Assembly: GCA_945833955.1 (NCBI GenBank)
Contig: CAMAGA010000015.1
Span: 1-19,473, forward strand
Reading direction: 5' to 3'
DNA: 19,473 bases
Source of the DNA: an uncultured Clostridia bacterium
Lineage (GTDB): Bacteria; Bacillota; Clostridia; Christensenellales; Borkfalkiaceae
A program made the translations under genes and the position numbers. Below, one piece after another: positions 2,650 through 10,311 of this stretch. The stretch's first letter is position 1. Every line of letters starts with the position of its first letter. The notes below the pieces were generated by a model. The model did no database searches. It had not been told where the DNA came from and worked only from the letters and a program-made list of their open reading frames with translations.

Positions 2650-4100
2650 TGTGCGGACTCCAGAAGCGCAATCGCATGATCCAACCGGGCAAGCGTTCTT
2701 TCCTTACCCAACAGTTCCGCCATTTCGCTTGCGCCGCCGGGCGTGCTTTCCTTACCGGTGAGCGCAACCCGCACGCCCCAAAGCACCTGCGAGTTTTTCA
2801 TTCCCATGGAAACCGCCAGATTTTTGAGCGCTTCGTACAGCGCGGCGTTCGAGTAGTCGTCCGTTTGCGCCAGTACCGCTCTTGCGGCAGGCAGCACTTT
2901 TTTGGCGATGGAAACGTCGCTCTTCATCTTTTTATGCGTGTACAGCGCAGGGTCTATCTCGCCGTATTCTTCTAAAAAGTTGACCTTTTCGGGAATTTCG
3001 CTTAAAACGTCCACTCTCGTTTTTACGAGCGCAACCAGCTTGGCAAGGTCGTATTTGCCGTATACCTTGCTCTTGGCAAAGTACGGTTCGGCAAGGGCGG
3101 TAAACTTTTCCACGGGCATTTCCTTATAGTACTCGCCGGAAAGCCAGCGGAGCTTGGCTTCGTCGAAGATGGAAGGGGACTTGGAAATGCCGTTTACGTC
3201 GAACTTTTCAATCATTTCCGCAAGCGTCATCTTTTCCACGCCGTCCTTGGGTGCCCAGCCGAGCAAGGCAATGTAATTGAGCACCGCTTCCTTGCAGTAA
3301 CCTTTGGCGATCAGGTCCTGATAGCTTGCGTCGCCGTTCCGCTTGGAAAGCTTGTGCTGTTCGTCCTTCATGACGGGCGATACGTGAATGTATACGGGGC
3401 GATCCCAGCCGAAGGTATCGTAAATCAAGTTGTACTTGGGCGTGGAGGAGAGGTATTCGATGCCGCGGATGACGTGCGTAATGCCCATGAGGTGGTCGTC
3501 TATCACGTTTGCAAAGTTATAGGTGGGCATACCGTCGCTCTTTAAAAGAATGCCGTCCTCGATATCCTTATAGTCCACGGAGATTTCCCCGAATACGAGG
3601 TCCTGATAGGTTCCCTTTCCTTCCGTGGGTACGTTCTGGCGGATGACGTACGGTTCGCCTGCGGCGATGCGCGCTTTTACCTCTTCCTTGGAAAGGGACA
3701 GGCAGTGCTTGTCGTAACGGGTAATGCCGTTTTCGTTCTTTAAGGACGCAATGCGCTCCTGCGAGCAGAAGCACGGGTAAGCGCCGCCCAGCTCCACGAG
3801 TTTTTCCGCATACTTTTTGTAGATGCCGCTCTGCATACGTTCGCTCTGCACGTAAGGGCCGTATCCCTTGTCCTTATCGGGTCCCTCGTCGTGGTCCATG
3901 CCTACGTCCTGCAGGGTACGGTAAATGACGTCTACCGCGCCTTCCACAAAGCGTTCCGTATCGGTATCTTCGATGCGGAGGATAAAGTCGCCTTTATTCT
4001 TTTTTGCGAACAGGTATTCGTACAGCGCAGTCCGCAAATTGCCGATATGCATATATCCCGTGGGGGAGGGCGCAAATCTCGTTCTTACTTTCTTTTCCAT
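2646..4100 (-). CDS. gltX: Glutamyl-tRNA synthetase
   Basis: 484 aa. N-terminus MEKKVRTRFAPSPTGYMHIGNLRTALYEY carries the class I HIGH-type motif, and KLSKR is the KMSKS motif. Colinear with Bacillus GltX over its whole length. Stop overlaps the downstream kinase GTG start. Confidence 0.95.
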   Translation of the reverse strand: MEKKVRTRFAPSPTGYMHIGNLRTALYEYLFAKKNKGDFILRIEDTDTERFVEGAVDVIYRTLQDVGMDHDEGPDKDKGYGPYVQSERMQSGIYKKYAEKLVELGGAYPCFCSQERIASLKNENGITRYDKHCLSLSKEEVKARIAAGEPYVIRQNVPTEGKGTYQDLVFGEISVDYKDIEDGILLKSDGMPTYNFANVIDDHLMGITHVIRGIEYLSSTPKYNLIYDTFGWDRPVYIHVSPVMKDEQHKLSKRNGDASYQDLIAKGYCKEAVLNYIALLGWAPKDGVEKMTLAEMIEKFDVNGISKSPSIFDEAKLRWLSGEYYKEMPVEKFTALAEPYFAKSKVYGKYDLAKLVALVKTRVDVLSEIPEKVNFLEEYGEIDPALYTHKKMKSDVSIAKKVLPAARAVLAQTDDYSNAALYEALKNLAVSMGMKNSQVLWGVRVALTGKESTPGGASEMAELLGKERTLARLDHAIALLESAQ

Positions 4101-4212
4101 AAATATCCGATTGACTCCTTATGTTGTTTCTTTTCTCCGGAAGGGGCTTTTAAAATATTTTCAAAAAATAAAAATTATGCCCCGAATCTATTTTACCATA
4201 TTTTCAAAAAAG

Positions 4213-4220
4213 TGTATAAT
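4213..4220 (+). promoter_or_regulatory. Extended -10 promoter element (TGTATAAT) for the dipeptidase gene
   Basis: TGnTATAAT at 4213-4220, 34 nt upstream of the ATG at 4255. AAAGGTGGA SD at 4241-4249. Confidence 0.5.
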
Positions 4221-4254
4221 TATTTTAGACAGTTTTTTTAAAAAGGTGGACATC

Positions 4255-5562
4255 ATGCAAGAATATTTTCAGGAAATCGTAAAATCGATCAGCGAAATCG
4301 TAAAATTCGACTCCGTACAGACGGCCCCCCTCGAAGGTATGCCCTTCGGGAAAGGAACGGCGGATTCCCTCCGCTATTTTTTGGAGCTTGCCCAAAGCTT
4401 TGGTTTTGAAACGCATAACTATGATAACTATATCGGCGAAGTCGTCTTCGGCAACGGCAAGGAATTTGCCATTTTGGCGCATCTGGACGTCGTGCCCGTG
4501 GGCAACGGCTGGGAGCACGATCCGTTCGGCGGAGAAATCGACCCGGTGAACGAAAAGATCTGGGGCAGAGGCACCATGGACGACAAGGGCCCCGCCATCG
4601 TTACGCTGTATGCGTTGCGCGCCTTAAAGGAAGAGGGTTTTATCCCCAACCGCAAAATCAAACTCATCGTCGGCTGCAACGAGGAAGCCGGCTGGGAGTG
4701 CATTCAGCATTACAGAAAGGTCGCCGTCATGCCGGAAGAAGGCTTTTCGCCCGACGCGGAATTCCCCATCATCTATGCGGAAAAGGGCATTCACCCCGTG
4801 CGCATAGCCTATAAACTCCCTACGCCTGCGCCCTTTGCTGCCTTGCAGGGCGGAACGGTTGTCAACGCCGTCTGCGATTACTGCGAGGCAACGCTTGCAA
4901 ACGGAGTGGAACCCGACTACGAAAAACTGGAAAAGTTCGGACTGACGTTCGTGCCCGGTTGCGAGCAGAATTGCAAATACTGCAAGGATGGCGGAAAAAT
5001 TGTTTCCCGCGGCGTAGCGGCGCACGCTTCCACGCCGGAAAAGGGCAAAAATGCCATTGAACCTTTGCTCCGTTACTTCGGGTTGGACGATTTGGCGGAC
5101 GTCCTGTTTGCCGACCGTTGCGGCATACAAAAATTGCAGGATGAAACGGGTCACCTCACCTTTTCGCCCGACCTTGTAACTTTGGAAGACGGCGTTCTGT
5201 ATTTTACCTGCGACATCCGTTACCCGGCAACGCTCACTTCCCAAGACGTATGCGCCGCTTTGGATACGTTCGGCCTGCCCTATACCGTTCTGGAAGACAA
5301 AAAGCCGCTCTTTTGCGACAAGAACAGCCCGCTTATTCAGACCCTGCTCGGCGTTTATAACTCCGTCACCGGGGAACACGCACAGCCCATAGCCATCGGC
5401 GGCGGCACGTATGCAAGGGCGTTGAAAAACGGTTGCGGATTCGGCCCGGAAACCGCCGATATCGACAACCGCATTCACAACAGCAACGAATTTATTACCT
5501 TCGGGCAGATCCGCCTCATGTACGAAGTCTACTATCGGGCGATTGCCGCCGTCTGCCAATAA
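4255..5562 (+). CDS. M20-family metallopeptidase, PepV/Sapep-like dipeptidase
   Basis: 435 aa from the ATG at 4255 (strong SD aaaGGTGGAcatc). The ORF-track start at 3925 lies inside and antisense to gltX and is not credible. Motifs ILAHLDVVPVGNGWEHDPF and GRGTMDDKG, with the ~435-aa length, are M20A hallmarks. Confidence 0.85.
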   Translation: MQEYFQEIVKSISEIVKFDSVQTAPLEGMPFGKGTADSLRYFLELAQSFGFETHNYDNYIGEVVFGNGKEFAILAHLDVVPVGNGWEHDPFGGEIDPVNEKIWGRGTMDDKGPAIVTLYALRALKEEGFIPNRKIKLIVGCNEEAGWECIQHYRKVAVMPEEGFSPDAEFPIIYAEKGIHPVRIAYKLPTPAPFAALQGGTVVNAVCDYCEATLANGVEPDYEKLEKFGLTFVPGCEQNCKYCKDGGKIVSRGVAAHASTPEKGKNAIEPLLRYFGLDDLADVLFADRCGIQKLQDETGHLTFSPDLVTLEDGVLYFTCDIRYPATLTSQDVCAALDTFGLPYTVLEDKKPLFCDKNSPLIQTLLGVYNSVTGEHAQPIAIGGGTYARALKNGCGFGPETADIDNRIHNSNEFITFGQIRLMYEVYYRAIAAVCQ

Positions 5563-5745: not shown

Positions 5746-6846
5746 TTATATGCTTTTGACTTTGACCGTAAAGGTACTGCCCTTGCCTACCACGCTGTCC
5801 GCCGAAATTTCCCCCTGCAACAGCACGAGTATGCGCTTGACGAGCGCCAGTCCCAGACCGTTGCCTTCCTTGGTGTGGGAGCTGTCCCCCTGATAGAACT
5901 TATCAAAGATATGCCCGAGCTCTTCCAAAGGTATACCGGGGCCGTGGTCGGATATCTCCGTTACCACGTATTCGCCCGCCCGATAACTTTTTACGCCGAC
6001 GTATCCGCCCGGTTGGGAAAATTTAACGGCGTTGCCGATCAGGTTCGTCCAGACGGTGTAGAGCAGATCCTCGTCCGTGGTGATTTCCATAGGTTCTAAG
6101 TCGATATCCAATTCGAGGTCCTTTTCCGTCCACTGCTTTTCATAGGAGAGAATACTTTGCCGTATCTGTTCGTCCAGGGAAAAGGTGGATTGCTGTATAA
6201 CGAGCGTCTGATTTTCCAGTCGGGAAAGTTTGAGGATGTTCTGCGTGAGCGTCGTCAGGCGTTTGGAGGACTCGATGATGAGGGAGGTATAGTTATTCCG
6301 CTCCTCCTCGCTGAGCGTCGGGTCCTGCAAGAGCGTCGCATACCCCTGAATGGTGGAGAGCGGCGTCTTCATTTCGTGGGAAACGTTGGCTACGAAGTCG
6401 TTTTTGAGCATCTCCATTTTGCCGAGTTCCTGCACCATTGCGTTGAAGTTCTGAATCAGGGTGCTCACTTCATCGTCTTCCTTGCGCAAACAGGGATCTT
6501 TTACGATCACGGTAAAATCGCCCTTGGCAACCTTGGTGGAGGCTTTGCTGATCTTGTGTATGGGATTGAGGTATCTTCGGATAATGACTGCGGAAAGGAC
6601 CGTTCCCGCAACGATGCTGCACAGCCCGATAATGCCGATAATATAGATATTGATGCCTATAAAAACAACGAGCTTGGCGTGTACCAGAAGGAACAGGATG
6701 CCTAAGAATGCAGAGATCGTAACGAACATGGAATTAAAACAAATCCATACGATCCGGAGCGTCAACTGCCCGGAAAAGAGACCTTCCGCCTCTTCCCTTG
6801 CGTCCTCTTCCTCTCTTTTCGTTTGTTTCGGTCTATTGTTTTTCAT
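5746..6846 (-). CDS. Sensor histidine kinase, OmpR-partner type (2 TM, short loop, HAMP, HisKA, HATPase_c), TCS-1
   Basis: 366 aa. Two TM segments with a very short extracytoplasmic loop, HAMP-like AKGDFTVIV, H-box NDFVANVSHEMKTPLSTIQGY, G-boxes GNGLGLALVKRIL and GKGSTFTVKV. ATGA overlap with the upstream response regulator. Confidence 0.9.
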   Translation of the reverse strand: MKNNRPKQTKREEEDAREEAEGLFSGQLTLRIVWICFNSMFVTISAFLGILFLLVHAKLVVFIGINIYIIGIIGLCSIVAGTVLSAVIIRRYLNPIHKISKASTKVAKGDFTVIVKDPCLRKEDDEVSTLIQNFNAMVQELGKMEMLKNDFVANVSHEMKTPLSTIQGYATLLQDPTLSEEERNNYTSLIIESSKRLTTLTQNILKLSRLENQTLVIQQSTFSLDEQIRQSILSYEKQWTEKDLELDIDLEPMEITTDEDLLYTVWTNLIGNAVKFSQPGGYVGVKSYRAGEYVVTEISDHGPGIPLEELGHIFDKFYQGDSSHTKEGNGLGLALVKRILVLLQGEISADSVVGKGSTFTVKVKSI

Positions 6847-7529
6847 GAAACGTTCCCTTTGTTTTTGACGACTTTATAGCCGAGCCCCCGCACCGTAACG
6901 ATGGAAAAATCGGGGTTGTTTTTGAACTTTTCCCGAAGCCTCGTGATATGCACGTCCACCGTGCGCTCGTAGCTTTCGCTGTCCATTCCCCAGAACTCGT
7001 CCATCAGATTGCTCCGCGTGAAAATTTTATCGGGGTAGGATAATAGCTTGAACAGAATATAGAATTCCTTGGGCGGCAACACCACGAGGGCATCTTCCCT
7101 TTTTACGGTAAGCGTATCGTAGTCGGCAACCGTTTTGCCTACCGTTACCCGATGCGCATTGGCGATATTGGAGCGGCGTAAAAGGGCGGTAACGCGCAGC
7201 ACGAGCTCGTTGATGTCGATCGGCTTGACCATGTAATCGTCCACGCCGATGGAAAACCCCCGCTGTTTGGAAGCAAAATCGTCCTTTGCCGTTACGAACA
7301 GTATGGGCATGGTGGCGGAATCCTTGCGGACCTCTTTGGCAAAATCGAAGCCGTCCATGCCGGGCATCATGATGTCGGAAATAATCAGGTCAAACTGCGC
7401 GGACTCGAATGCGGCAAAGGCTTCCGCAGGATTGCCGACGCCTGCGGCGGCATAGCCGTTCCGCTCCAAAACCGTGCAGATGAGTTTATTCAAATTTCGG
7501 TCGTCTTCGACTACCAGAATACGAAACAT
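6843..7529 (-). CDS. OmpR-family response regulator (REC + winged helix), TCS-1
   Basis: 228 aa from MFRILVVEDD (AAAGGAG SD 9 nt upstream). The ORF track extends to 7571 without an SD. Receiver motifs DLIISDIMMPGMDG and ILFVTAKDD. C-terminal trans_reg_C (LLSYPDKIFTRSNLMDEFWG...VDVHITRLREK). Confidence 0.9.
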   Translation of the reverse strand: MFRILVVEDDRNLNKLICTVLERNGYAAAGVGNPAEAFAAFESAQFDLIISDIMMPGMDGFDFAKEVRKDSATMPILFVTAKDDFASKQRGFSIGVDDYMVKPIDINELVLRVTALLRRSNIANAHRVTVGKTVADYDTLTVKREDALVVLPPKEFYILFKLLSYPDKIFTRSNLMDEFWGMDSESYERTVDVHITRLREKFKNNPDFSIVTVRGLGYKVVKNKGNVS

Positions 7530-7705
7530 AATCCTATACTCCTTTCTTTTCCTTTTTATTATAGCATACATTTATGAATGGATTATAAACTTTTTGGGTA
7601 AAAAAAGGTTTTCGCAACTTTTTTTCGGCAAAACGGCAGGGTCGGAGACTGCGCAAAGGCAGGGGAAAAGCCGCCCTCTGAATATGCGGGACGGGTGCCG
7701 AAGCA

Positions 7706-7823
7706 TAAAAAAATTCCCCGAAACTTTCCGTTCGGGGCAATGCCACAAGTGAGTTGGCGGGAATGAACGCGCATAAGCCGTTCAACTGTCTATAAGTATA
7801 TATCACTTTGCGGCAAAAGTCAA
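7706..7823 (-). ncRNA. Candidate small RNA unit: sigma-70 promoter + ~85-nt body + intrinsic terminator
   Basis: Minus strand: -35 TTGACT (plus 7818-7823), 17-nt spacer, -10 TATACT (plus 7795-7800). Predicted TSS about 7788. Terminator: 7-bp GC stem ccccgaa/ttcgggg (7716-7737) followed by 7 U (plus A-run 7707-7713). The body can form a stem AGTTGAACGG/CCGCCAACT. No credible ORF or SD inside. Confidence 0.4.
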
Positions 7824-7998
7824 ACGATTTTTCCGATAAAATAAAATCACAATTACAATTTTGAAAAAAGGACGGTAAACGAAAAATGAAAATCATAAAA
7901 AGGTTATTATCGGAAAAGCCGAACCGCTGCCGTTACGGTAGACCGCCTCGTCCACCCTGTCTATCACTTTCAGGCGCCTCCGTAAAGAAGTACACTCC

Positions 7999-8046
7999 GT
8001 AAAAAATACCGCTTCCCTCGGGCGCAAGCCGATCGGTAGCGGTATT
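7999..8046 (-). terminator. Terminator candidate after the small membrane protein gene
   Basis: 9-bp stem AATACCGCT/AGCGGTATT enclosing a 24-nt loop with an internal CCGATCGG palindrome. On the minus strand it is followed by UUUUUAC. About 60 nt downstream of the stop at 8106. Confidence 0.4.
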
Positions 8047-8105
8047 TGGGTTTTATGCCGAATTTTAAAACTGCAAACGGCCTGTATTTTTGGGAATGCC
8101 GAAAT

Positions 8106-8504
8106 TTACGACTCGGGCGGTTCTTCCTTTTTTTCTTCCTTTAAAAGCGTTTCGGCAAGTTCCGCTATCTGTTTGCCGTACTTTTTTTGCCCGTGGCGCA
8201 ACAGTTCGTCGTAAGTGAGCCGTCCGCCGAGAATGCCGATGACGCCGAGCAGGACAACGGCGGTTCCCCAGCCGTAAGAACGCATTTCCAGCAAAACGGA
8301 AATTCCGCCGCCAAAAACGAGAAAACCGATCACGGAGACGATCCACCCCCAGAGAGAAGCTCTTTTTTGCACCTTTTTGTTTAACGACCGCAACTGCTCC
8401 AGGGGCGGATTTTCCGCAAACGCATTGCGGATGCTCTCTATTTCCTTCCGCTCCTCTTCCGTGGGAGCCGTATAACGGTAACTGAATTGTTTGTCGCTCA
8501 TGTT
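8106..8504 (-). CDS. Small two-TM hairpin membrane protein, unknown function, last gene of TCS-2 operon
   Basis: 132 aa from MSDKQFSYRY (AAGAGGA SD 9 nt upstream; the track start at 8543 lacks an SD). Charged N-terminal 50 aa (TEEERKEIESIRNAF), two adjacent hydrophobic helices (LWGWIVSVIGFLVFGGGISVLL and WGTAVVLLGVIGILGG), K/E-rich C-terminal tail. 45 nt downstream of the kinase. Confidence 0.65.
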   Translation of the reverse strand, partial: NMSDKQFSYRYTAPTEEERKEIESIRNAFAENPPLEQLRSLNKKVQKRASLWGWIVSVIGFLVFGGGISVLLEMRSYGWGTAVVLLGVIGILGGRLTYDELLRHGQKKYGKQIAELAETLLKEEKKEEPPES

Positions 8505-8549: not shown

Positions 8550-9626
8550 TTAAGGCGAGCTCCGCAAGGTAACCGTAAAGGTACTGCCTTCCCCCGGCGT
8601 GCTTTCCACGGCAATATTGCCGCCGAGAACGTCGATGACCCGTTTGACGAGCGCCAGCCCCAGCCCGTTGCCCTCCGAAGCGTGGGAAGTGTCGCCTTGA
8701 TAAAATTTTTCAAAGATGCGATTGCCCGTTTCCGGCTCTATGCCGCAACCCGTATCCCGCACGCTGAGCACCACGTCCCCCTCCGAAACTTTCAGCGAAA
8801 CGAAAATACTGCCTTCCGCTTCCGTGAACTTGACCGCATTGGAAAGGAGATTGCCCACGACGATCTGCATATAAGCGGGGCAGGCATACGCCTTGACGTC
8901 CTGTAAATCGCATTCCAAAGTTATCCTCTTTTTTTCCACCGTATCCTCAAATTTCAGCACTTCTTCGGAGACGAGCGCAGTCAGATCGCACTCCTGTTTT
9001 TCGGGCAGGATCCTGCTGTTTTCCAGTTTAGAGAGCTGTAAAATGTTGGTAACGAGGTCGGAGAGCCTATCCGTTGCCGAAACCAGCGTCCGGACGCACT
9101 GTTCCTTCTTTTCCGCATCCAACCCCGGCTTTGTAAGCAGGGAAGCGTAGGAGCGAATGACGGCAAGTGGCGTCTTGAGTTCGTGGGAAACGTTGGAAAC
9201 AAAGTCGTTCTTCACCAGCTCCGATTTCCCCAATTCCTCCGCCATGCGGTTGATATTCGCCTCGATCAGGTCGTAGCTGTCGTACTTGCCGTAAGGGTGG
9301 CGCAGGGGAATGCGCACGGAAAAATCGCCTGCGGCTATTTTATCCGTCGCGCGGAGGATATCCTGCACGGGCTTATGCGCCATAACCTTTCGCCTGCCCC
9401 AATCCACGACCACGCACACCGCCGCAAACGACAGCGATACCGCAAACATGACGATCGTAACGATGAAGTTATCTTCCGTTACGGAAGATATCATCCGATA
9501 GATGGCGATGGCGATTTCTATGGAAATGAGCTCCATAAAAAAGAGAATAACGAAGCCGAGGGGCGTGATGGTGATCCCTTGCCCGTCCCGCCGTTTTTGC
9601 TTTTTGGAAACCTTTCGATTTTGCAT
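8550..9626 (-). CDS. Sensor histidine kinase, paralog of 5746-6846 (2 TM, HAMP, HisKA, HATPase_c), TCS-2
   Basis: 358 aa. AAGDFSVRI, H-box NDFVSNVSHELKTPLAVIRSY, GNGLGLALVKRVI and GEGSTFTVTL are near-identical in motif and architecture to the TCS-1 kinase. AAAGGGGAAGG SD. 10 nt after the response-regulator stop. Confidence 0.9.
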   Translation of the reverse strand: MQNRKVSKKQKRRDGQGITITPLGFVILFFMELISIEIAIAIYRMISSVTEDNFIVTIVMFAVSLSFAAVCVVVDWGRRKVMAHKPVQDILRATDKIAAGDFSVRIPLRHPYGKYDSYDLIEANINRMAEELGKSELVKNDFVSNVSHELKTPLAVIRSYASLLTKPGLDAEKKEQCVRTLVSATDRLSDLVTNILQLSKLENSRILPEKQECDLTALVSEEVLKFEDTVEKKRITLECDLQDVKAYACPAYMQIVVGNLLSNAVKFTEAEGSIFVSLKVSEGDVVLSVRDTGCGIEPETGNRIFEKFYQGDTSHASEGNGLGLALVKRVIDVLGGNIAVESTPGEGSTFTVTLRSSP

Positions 9627-9636
9627 ACCTTCCCCT

Positions 9637-10311
9637 TTACACCGGCACCGCTTTATAACCCAGCCCGTGCACGGTTACGATTTTGAACCCGTCGCAAGCG
9701 GCAGTTTTTTCCCGCAGTTTTGCCATGCATACGTCCACCGTGCGGGAAGTGGCGGAGGAATCGAAGTCCCAGAACTCGTCCATGAGCACGGAACGGGTAA
9801 AAGTGCGCTTGGGGTTGGAGAGCATCTTATATAAAAGGTCGAATTCCCGCACCGTCAGGGGCAGTTCCTTGCCGTCCACGTAGGCGGTATGCTCTTCCTG
9901 CTTCATGGTCAGATTGCCGACGCACAGCTGTTTTTCCTCTTCTATTCGGGTACGGCGGAACACCGCGTCCACTTTTAACGTCAGCACTTCCACGTCGAAC
10001 GGCTTGACTATGTAATCGTCTATGCCCAGTCGGTAGCCGAGAATCTGCGAATATTTATCGCTCTTTGCCGTCATGAATAAGATGGGAATGCGGGTATCCT
10101 TTTTGCGCACCGCCTCGGCGAGGGCAAAGCCGTCTGCGCCCGGCATCATGATATCCGTCAGGATCATATCGAAAGTCTGTCTTTCGAGCGCCTGCAACGC
10201 TTCGGCGCCATTTTTGCAGGCTACCACTTCGTAACCGCCTTCCCGTAAGGCAAACTCCACCAACGCATTCAAAGCCGCGTCGTCTTCCGCCAACAGTATA
10301 CGCTCCGTCAT
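9637..10311 (-). CDS. OmpR-family response regulator, paralog of 6843-7529, TCS-2
   Basis: 224 aa. ILLAEDDAALN, DMILTDIMMPGADG, ILFMTAKSD, C-terminal winged helix (LLYKMLSNPKRTFTRSVLMDEFW...VDVCMAKLREK). GGAGGG SD 8 nt upstream. Confidence 0.9.
   Translation of the reverse strand: MTERILLAEDDAALNALVEFALREGGYEVVACKNGAEALQALERQTFDMILTDIMMPGADGFALAEAVRKKDTRIPILFMTAKSDKYSQILGYRLGIDDYIVKPFDVEVLTLKVDAVFRRTRIEEEKQLCVGNLTMKQEEHTAYVDGKELPLTVREFDLLYKMLSNPKRTFTRSVLMDEFWDFDSSATSRTVDVCMAKLREKTAACDGFKIVTVHGLGYKAVPV

Follow-up and report, generated by a model that had tools for sequence, protein, structure and literature searches.

A predicted stand-alone small RNA gene in a clostridial spacer belongs to an uncatalogued RNA family of prophage-like elements

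The window, a 19,473-nt stretch from a pig-gut metagenome contig, contains a spacer between two two-component systems (TCS-1 and TCS-2) in which a promoter and an intrinsic terminator follow one another on the minus strand. Does this pair delimit the gene of an independent small RNA (sRNA), does it belong to TCS-1 as a leader or attenuator, or is it an accident of an AT-richer spacer? A sequence-only reading had put forward an independent RNA of about 85 nt and, as an alternative, a terminated TCS-1 leader. The comparative data reported here firmly support the former: as far as sequence comparison can tell, 7706-7823 on the minus strand is a genuine, independent sRNA gene. The unit is conserved in 23 other loci, its stems carry compensatory pairs, its promoter is kept, and homology ends at the edges of the unit.

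The DNA around the unit is ordinary chromosomal DNA. Features of the unit and its surroundings are listed in Table 1. The spacer measures 576 nt rather than the 575 bp first given, and the description of the flanking operons as duplicated was overstated. TCS-1 and TCS-2 share 47% identity between regulators and 40% between kinases, which marks them as old paralogues and not as products of a recent duplication.

Table 1. Features of the sRNA unit and of its surroundings in the window
Feature	Position	Strand	Basis or remark
-35 box, TTGACT	7818..7823	-	Consensus scan; TTGAC(T/A) in 14/14 distinct family members
-10 box, TATACT	7795..7800	-	17-nt spacing from the -35 box
Predicted transcript, ~80-85 nt	7706..7790	-	Covariance-model matches in other loci
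SL1, UGAACGGC-UUAU-GC(G)CGUUCA	7764..7784	-	RNAalifold covariation
Unpaired C-rich linker UUCCC, within motif CAUYCCCG	7759..7763	-	Folding and conservation
SL2, GCCA-loop-UGGC, loop variable	7742..7758	-	Covariation
Terminator hairpin, CCCCGAA(C)...(G)UUUCGGGG	7716..7737	-	Consensus scan, folding, covariation
U7 tract, preceded by AA	7707..7713	-	Sequence reading and scan
DNA homologous to element copies	7701..7845	-	Core 7706-7825; 7845 reached only with L121
TCS-2 regulator	9637-10311	-	Pfam
TCS-2 kinase	8550-9626	-	Pfam
131-aa membrane protein	8106-8501	-	
Spacer, 576 nt	7530-8105		
TCS-1 regulator	6843-7529	-	Pfam
TCS-1 kinase	5746-6846	-	Pfam
Leucine-rich-repeat protein gene		-	Pfam; listed ahead of TCS-2
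M20 peptidase gene		+	After TCS-1
gltX		-	After TCS-1
RadA, NadA and others			Further upstream

A promoter and a terminator frame a predicted three-hairpin RNA

The near-consensus minus-strand promoter noticed in the sequence-only reading is present: TTGACT and TATACT, 17 nt apart, match the sigma-70 consensus at 10 of 12 positions. Its distance to the terminator, put at about 60 nt, is 57 nt when counted from the end of the -10 box to the stem. At a threshold of 10 consensus positions out of 12 or better, the window contains six sites, and its dinucleotide shuffles contain 2.2 ± 1.4. Since each of the remaining five lies immediately 5′ of a gene or of tRNA-Arg, sites of this score predict promoters well in this organism. 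Of shuffled versions of the 576-nt spacer, about 10% had such a site on one strand or the other; for a site that is correctly oriented and no more than ~100 nt ahead of the terminator, we put the chance frequency at roughly 1%.

The terminator hairpin reads CCCCGAA-N8-TTCGGGG, followed by AA and then T7. The 7-bp stem and the U7 tract stood as described, while the stem is not purely GC, only five of its seven pairs being G-C, and AA precedes the U tract. Folded alone, the hairpin has an energy of -11.9 kcal/mol. The 85-nt RNA folds into three hairpins (minimum free energy of -27 kcal/mol, z -2.3), so that the body holds two stem-loops, SL1 and SL2, where one had been suggested; both are backed by covariation. 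The transcript would start at about 7790-7787 and end inside the U tract.

Directly upstream of the -35 box there is also a perfect 11-nt inverted repeat, TTTTCCGATAA/TTATCGGAAAA, at 7829-7839 and 7907-7917. Its arms are 67 nt apart, and the chance expectation for such a repeat is about 0.05 pairs per 650 nt.

The unit looks non-coding

Reading of the unit revealed no visible Shine-Dalgarno sequence. The two open reading frames that run across it, of 63 aa (7583-7774) and 120 aa (7534-7896), have GC3 values of 0.48 and 0.40; the ORFs taken as genes have values of 0.55-0.71 (0.61-0.71 in 14 of 15). For the 120-aa ORF, neither a homologue among 1.84 billion representative proteins nor a Pfam match was found. 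Both ORFs were ruled out as genes because of their low GC3 and, for the longer one, the empty homologue and Pfam searches. These results concur with the earlier view that no Shine-Dalgarno sequence or plausible ORF lies between promoter and terminator. Translation of the 63-aa ORF, which had been named as an outcome that would speak against an RNA gene, is not suggested by its composition.

The RNA belongs to a conserved family

A metagenome collection was scanned with the pattern TGAACG-N9-CGTTCATTCCCGCC, which represents SL1 and the linker. Among the 37 loci returned, 32 were chance matches in high-GC coding DNA. The other five (L098, L100, L108, L113, and L121; GC 0.39-0.51) contained the whole RNA at 81-101 bits, all with TTGACT, a -10 box 17 nt on, the same terminator, and a run of seven or eight U. 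Each has a neighbouring gene for a protein of ~153-170 aa on the opposite strand. In a second round, DNA fetched around four homologues of this neighbouring protein yielded 18 further distinct loci; all of them contain the RNA, each time in convergent position. Beyond the window, the family comprises 23 distinct loci, all of which keep the -35 and -10 boxes and the three hairpins; covariance-model scores in the other loci were 39-101 bits (R1) and 65-108 bits (R2). The conservation of promoter, body, and terminator that the sequence-only reading had proposed as a check is thus borne out, in loci where the RNA never precedes a two-component system.

A covariance search of the region, likewise proposed, was run and matched no family. 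Rfam 15 gave no match at an E value of ≤10 in 7450-8150, the whole window yielded only tRNA-Arg, and five homologous loci gave no match at an E value of ≤1. Three patterns run against IMG/VR viral contigs and blastn searches of GenBank phages and PLSDB plasmids returned no match, and no description of an equivalent RNA or locus was found in literature searches. Together, the comparisons firmly support the assignment of the predicted window RNA to a conserved RNA family that is uncatalogued in Rfam.

Stems covary and the promoter is retained

Double-sided changes were found by RNAalifold in five of the eight SL1 pairs, for example, G-C to A-U in L098 and UGGAUG/CAUCCA in L144. The U-G wobbles of SL1 in L125 and L132 agree with the promoter strand and not with its complement. 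The UUCCC linker has an unpaired probability of 0.8-0.99 and is near-invariant across the family. In SL2, two of the four pairs covary (C-G to U-A in six sequences and G-C to A-U in three), and the loop sequence differs among subgroups. The innermost pairs of the terminator hairpin covary as well, with A-U replaced by G-C in about half of the family. Near-invariance extends to the unpaired motifs CAGUUG, CAUYCCCG, and CA-N2-G.

In the model-fitted alignment of 16 sequences, 99.6% of cells pair, and double-sided changes occur in 7 of 17 pairs. None of 500 shuffles reached 7/17, and sliding the partners by one to three columns left zero or one such pair. An independent alignment of 13 sequences (MAFFT and RNAalifold) recovered these three hairpins, with compensatory changes in 9 of 20 pairs. 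Elsewhere in the family a spacing of 17 nt is likewise kept, with a -10 box of TATAAT, TATACT, TATGCT, or TATTCT, and both boxes are retained in L142 and L144 despite unrelated spacers and flanks. The U run measures seven or eight in all members but one, L144, which has five. Judged from these alignments, the structure and the promoter of the family are under selection.

In other loci, the RNA converges on a protein gene of mobile elements

In all 23 other loci, the RNA lies within prophage-like mobile elements of gut Clostridia and is linked to one protein gene. Features of these elements include a REP_ORF2-G2P rolling-circle initiator, Zot-like ATPases, strings of tiny ORFs, DDE or tyrosine integrases, and HTH repressors, with the host genes for PGK, RecX, and GDPD at the edges; the elements are probably of the inovirus type. 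The RNA is internal to them and lies at least 1.4 kb from the integrase, off the element edges, so that an attachment site was ruled out. In nearly all of these loci, the RNA is transcribed towards the gene for a basic protein of 145-170 aa and overlaps its last 5-22 nt. The gene that follows the RNA varies by element type (725 aa, 92 aa, Zot-like, or HTH), so it is the 145-170-aa gene to which the RNA is linked.

The partner protein has 418 homologues, with a highly conserved core and basic tails; it is rich in Lys and Arg, and 34 of 35 aligned sequences are without a hydrophobic stretch. Searches returned Pfam PemK at an E value of 5e-4 and a PHROG MazF-like family at 4e-4. By hhalign, its segment ERPVVVIE was aligned with the presumed Bacillus subtilis MazF segment VRPVLVIQ, which would hold the catalytic Arg. 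The protein model was of low confidence (pLDDT of 61) and had CptN of the gut Firmicute Eubacterium rectale among its structural matches; PADLOC gave no match, and nothing beyond weak matches to eL6 came from a sequence search of the PDB. These signals are consistent but weak, and they suggest that the protein may be MazF/Kid-like.

In the element copies, the stop codon of the partner gene sits in the terminator loop of the RNA. Since no sense-strand terminator was found after the partner gene in the element loci, the partner mRNA probably continues across the RNA gene, in which case it would be complementary to the whole sRNA. The coding overlap of 5-22 nt is short and its length is not conserved, so that antisense action would hinge on this putative read-through. 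No recurrent complementary site that could serve as a trans target was conserved in the 13 loci examined, where matches were at chance level, and the same was true of pairing between the RNA and the partner 5′ UTR.

Two further observations concern the partner gene. Its 5′ UTR contains a long hairpin, CUGUCGGACGG...CCGUUCGGCAG, at 10396-10455 of L113 and at the same position in L125, L126, L098, and L108; it is absent from the L135, L142, and L144 types. The arms of this hairpin resemble SL1 of the sRNA (CAGUUGAACGG...CGUUCA), and it could act as a kissing partner or mimic a binding site. In some elements, the MazF-like gene (protein P0240) has lost the stop codon in the terminator loop and continues into the sRNA antisense (7707-7765 of the window plus strand), with the C-terminal extension ...NPFGAMPQ..., which shows how closely the two genes abut.

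L108 holds three tandem promoter-RNA-terminator units (3995-4790) that share an upstream repeat of ~100 nt and have promoters at 4004, 4203, and 4649. Unit 1 (4037-4122) is of the window type and lies 645 nt from the 170-aa gene, with units 2 and 3 between. Unit 3 (4702-4782), a divergent family member (R2 of 32 bits, E value of 3e-6), overlaps the 3′ end of that gene, whose product is the most divergent partner protein, at ~40% identity to the others. The most divergent protein thus adjoins the most divergent RNA, which suggests that RNA and protein diverge together. Unit 2 (~4238-4326) also forms three hairpins (-34.7 kcal/mol); it falls outside the family, has no Rfam match, and was found in no other locus.

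The window copy is intact, sharply bounded, and solo

When 7400-8200 was compared by blastn with 28 element loci, all matches with an E value of <0.1 fell inside 7701-7845. Save for L121, the homology spans the -35 box to the U tract, from 7701/7706 to 7825/7827. The rest of the 19.5-kb window had no match to the element loci, and tblastn found no partner protein gene in the window. Because the RNA cassette stands alone, with no partner gene within 19 kb, the window copy is solo; it is also intact, with no damage at any stem, linker, or promoter position, and sharply bounded. It is the only chromosomal solo copy known.

The window RNA is identical to that of L100 over the 57 nt that begin with CAGUUG and end where the terminator loop starts, and 96% identical over 83 nt; this near-identity could reflect recent transfer. 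Its promoter is nearest to the L135 type (89% identity over 123 nt). Relative to all other members, the terminator loop has a 1-nt deletion and further changes, and the partner stop codon is lost.

TCS-1 relatives lack the cassette

Early comparisons around related regulators were fruitless because the species is rare. The TCS-1 regulator was found on four contigs, the next relative being 69% identical, and the nearest relative of the 131-aa neighbour protein was 46% identical. By blastn and a single-sequence covariance model, the cassette was absent from 80 genome and 6 metagenome loci near related regulators. The closest TCS-1 relatives (regulator 67-69% identical) have, upstream of the regulator, a gene of 202-220 aa with its own promoter and terminator; a DUF2188 domain is recorded in the L086 copy only. 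The idea that the cassette is a relic of this lost upstream gene was abandoned: tblastn detected no remnant of the gene in the window, and the true homologues of the cassette superseded it.

A palindrome, ATTATTCTGTAACGRATAAT, is conserved in L082 (3806-3852) and L086 (3845-3885) just before the terminator of the 202-220-aa gene. It lies ~150 nt before the regulator gene in these closest TCS-1 relatives, is absent from the window, and may be an operator or an RNA hairpin.

Interpretation

We consider it most likely, with a probability of about 0.6, that the unit is a stand-alone sRNA gene whose product acts as antidote to, or regulator of, the MazF-like protein and whose solo copy in the window is either kept to act in trans or a remnant. 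A sigma-70-type promoter would direct synthesis of an RNA of ~80-85 nt consisting of SL1, the unpaired CAUUCCCG linker, SL2, the terminator hairpin, and the U7 tail. This RNA would restrain the MazF-like protein in toxin-antitoxin style, by pairing with the read-through mRNA of the protein, by binding the protein directly, or both. The solo copy might act in trans and neutralise the protein of elements that are already resident or are coming in, conferring immunity or anti-addiction, or it might be a recently captured remnant whose transcription continues. The antidote model builds on RNA and protein genes that are strictly and convergently linked and diverge together, on the likely read-through antisense, on the MazF-like signals, and on the invariant unpaired motifs; transcription, protein toxicity, the antidote mechanism, and the role in trans are what we infer.

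The main rival is a neutral remnant, a mobile-element fragment that stayed behind in the spacer or was transferred there, has no host role, and is probably still transcribed because its promoter and terminator are intact. Every other copy sits in mobile elements and the window lacks the partner gene, the near-identity to L100 is compatible with recent arrival, and the terminator loop has become 1 nt shorter with removal of the partner stop codon. Yet the -35 box and the U tract mark the exact limits of the homology, and nothing is seen of the adjoining protein-coding DNA, which is otherwise well conserved; such edges would rarely result from random decay of a larger fragment. Moreover, stems, linker, and promoter are undamaged, and L108 has a second copy 645 nt from the gene. 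The exact edges and intact motifs argue against the remnant, and we regard it as unlikely but a serious competitor. Distinctly less probable is a trans-acting sRNA that would use the C-rich CAUUCCCG or the SL2 loop as a seed against ribosome-binding sites in mRNAs of the host or the elements, with the MazF-like protein uninvolved. Firmicute sRNAs, RsaE/RoxS among them, typically have C-rich seeds, the linker here is both unpaired and near-invariant, and the SL2 loop varies among subgroups as a specificity determinant might; however, no recurrent complementary site emerged from the 13 loci examined, Rfam offered no similarity to RsaE or any other family, and the linkage to one protein gene in 23 of 23 loci would go unexplained.

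That the unit serves TCS-1 as a leader, attenuator, or borrowed promoter, with partial read-through tuning or driving the operon 177 nt downstream, we consider very unlikely. The unit is co-oriented with the regulator gene, the AA between stem and U tract may weaken termination, and 7764-7752 can pair weakly with the 3′ arm of the terminator. However, the alternative fold that frees the terminator reaches -19.5 kcal/mol against -27 kcal/mol; this penalty of 7.5 kcal/mol, together with a whole 265-nt leader that folds like its shuffles (z -0.47), led to rejection of the attenuator model. No homologue precedes a TCS, the downstream gene is on the opposite strand in all other loci, and the relatives with 67-69% identity carry an ordinary gene and terminator in that place instead. 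The absence of any TCS-linked homologue, the element-free TCS-1 relatives, and the worse alternative fold thus tell against the leader that the sequence-only reading had offered as an alternative. TCS-1 also has its own extended -10 box, read from the sequence as TGcTATAAT at 7566-7558, just 5′ of the ribosome-binding site; some read-through from the unit into TCS-1 may occur. That two motifs resembling a promoter and a terminator merely fell together by chance in the AT-richer spacer has a negligible probability: consensus scans are rich in false positives, and a tenth of shuffled spacers contain a site of this quality, but the idea is refuted by the 23 homologous loci, in which the boxes are conserved and the stems covary.

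Relation to known systems

In the type I systems txpA/RatA and bsrG/SR4 of B. subtilis, a convergent antisense RNA overlaps the 3′ end of the toxin gene. The element loci are similar in that a small RNA equipped with a promoter and a terminator of its own converges on a gene and overlaps its 3′ end; type I loci are also often prophage-borne, and extra or solo antitoxin copies are conceivable. The antisense relation itself is found in the element loci (an overlap of 5-22 nt and no sense terminator) and not in the window, which is without a toxin gene. Unlike the hydrophobic toxin peptides of ≤60 aa, the partner here is soluble, highly basic, and 145-170 aa long, and since it is not a small hydrophobic peptide, the pair is not a classical type I system. 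The coding overlap is also only 5-22 nt, and the RNA has conserved unpaired motifs that pure antisense action would not need. Clostridial type I toxin-antitoxin loci have been reviewed (PMC6563280, PMC5961336).

The type III loci ToxIN, CptIN, and TenpIN have tandem repeats, with the RNA upstream on the same strand and a terminator between RNA and protein gene (PMC3401426). Similarities to type III are the pairing of a possibly Kid/MazF-related endoribonuclease-like protein with a non-coding RNA and carriage by mobile elements; in contrast, the RNA here is single, three-hairpinned, and convergent and has its own promoter. No tandem repeats were found in the ~600-700 nt upstream of the protein gene (L113, L135, and L144) or in the window spacer, so a canonical type III locus was rejected, there being no repeat arrays and the RNA being convergent rather than upstream. 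The layout is type I-like and the protein fold possibly type III-like, with the defining features of neither.

The C4 antisense RNA of P1/P7 and the CI RNA of P4 are phage immunity RNAs processed from longer transcripts. They resemble the present RNA as stem-loop RNAs of ~80 nt from temperate elements; they act in trans on element transcripts, and a chromosomal or rival-element copy would confer immunity. Unlike them, the window RNA had no Rfam match (hence none to C4, which presumably has an Rfam family, if that family is in the release), and no target repeats were found. RsaE/RoxS is alike in size, in an unpaired C-rich motif between hairpins, and in a Rho-independent terminator; it differs in that the present RNA shows no sequence or structure match in Rfam and has a mobile-element location and linkage to one protein gene.

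A tentative proposal, which we would not yet favour, is that these loci encode a novel RNA-protein toxin-antitoxin pair in which a single, non-repetitive three-hairpin sRNA with a strong promoter of its own lies tail-to-tail with a MazF-fold toxin and solo copies have been domesticated for immunity or anti-addiction. If so, the pair would be widespread on inovirus-like prophages of gut Clostridia, and the domesticated solo RNAs would be those of the window chromosome and the rival element L108. If the antidote model holds, it would represent a new RNA-controlled toxin-antitoxin architecture in which a structured, single-copy sRNA converges on the gene for a MazF-fold protein, and of which the chromosome and a competing element keep only the RNA half. 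Keeping the RNA alone would be a simple way, open to testing, of becoming immune to filamentous-phage-like elements, which abound in gut Firmicutes but are poorly understood. The formerly anonymous promoter-terminator pair is now predicted to belong to a conserved RNA family that is uncatalogued and has a clear genetic partner, and the family alignment and covariance model can be used for annotating the RNA in gut metagenomes.

Other features of the window

A probable terminator of the TCS-2 operon lies at 8004-8047 on the minus strand and consists of a 13-nt inverted repeat (92% complementary) with an 18-nt structured loop, followed by T6; it was missed by the simple scan because of its long loop. 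A comparison unit at 41-198, also on the minus strand, combines a promoter matching 12 of 12 consensus positions (198-170), tRNA-Arg(ACG) at 148-72, and a 14-bp terminator (72-41). Between gltX and the tRNA, positions 663-2649 encode a HisKA_3 kinase and a LuxR/GerE-type regulator, so that the window holds three two-component systems.
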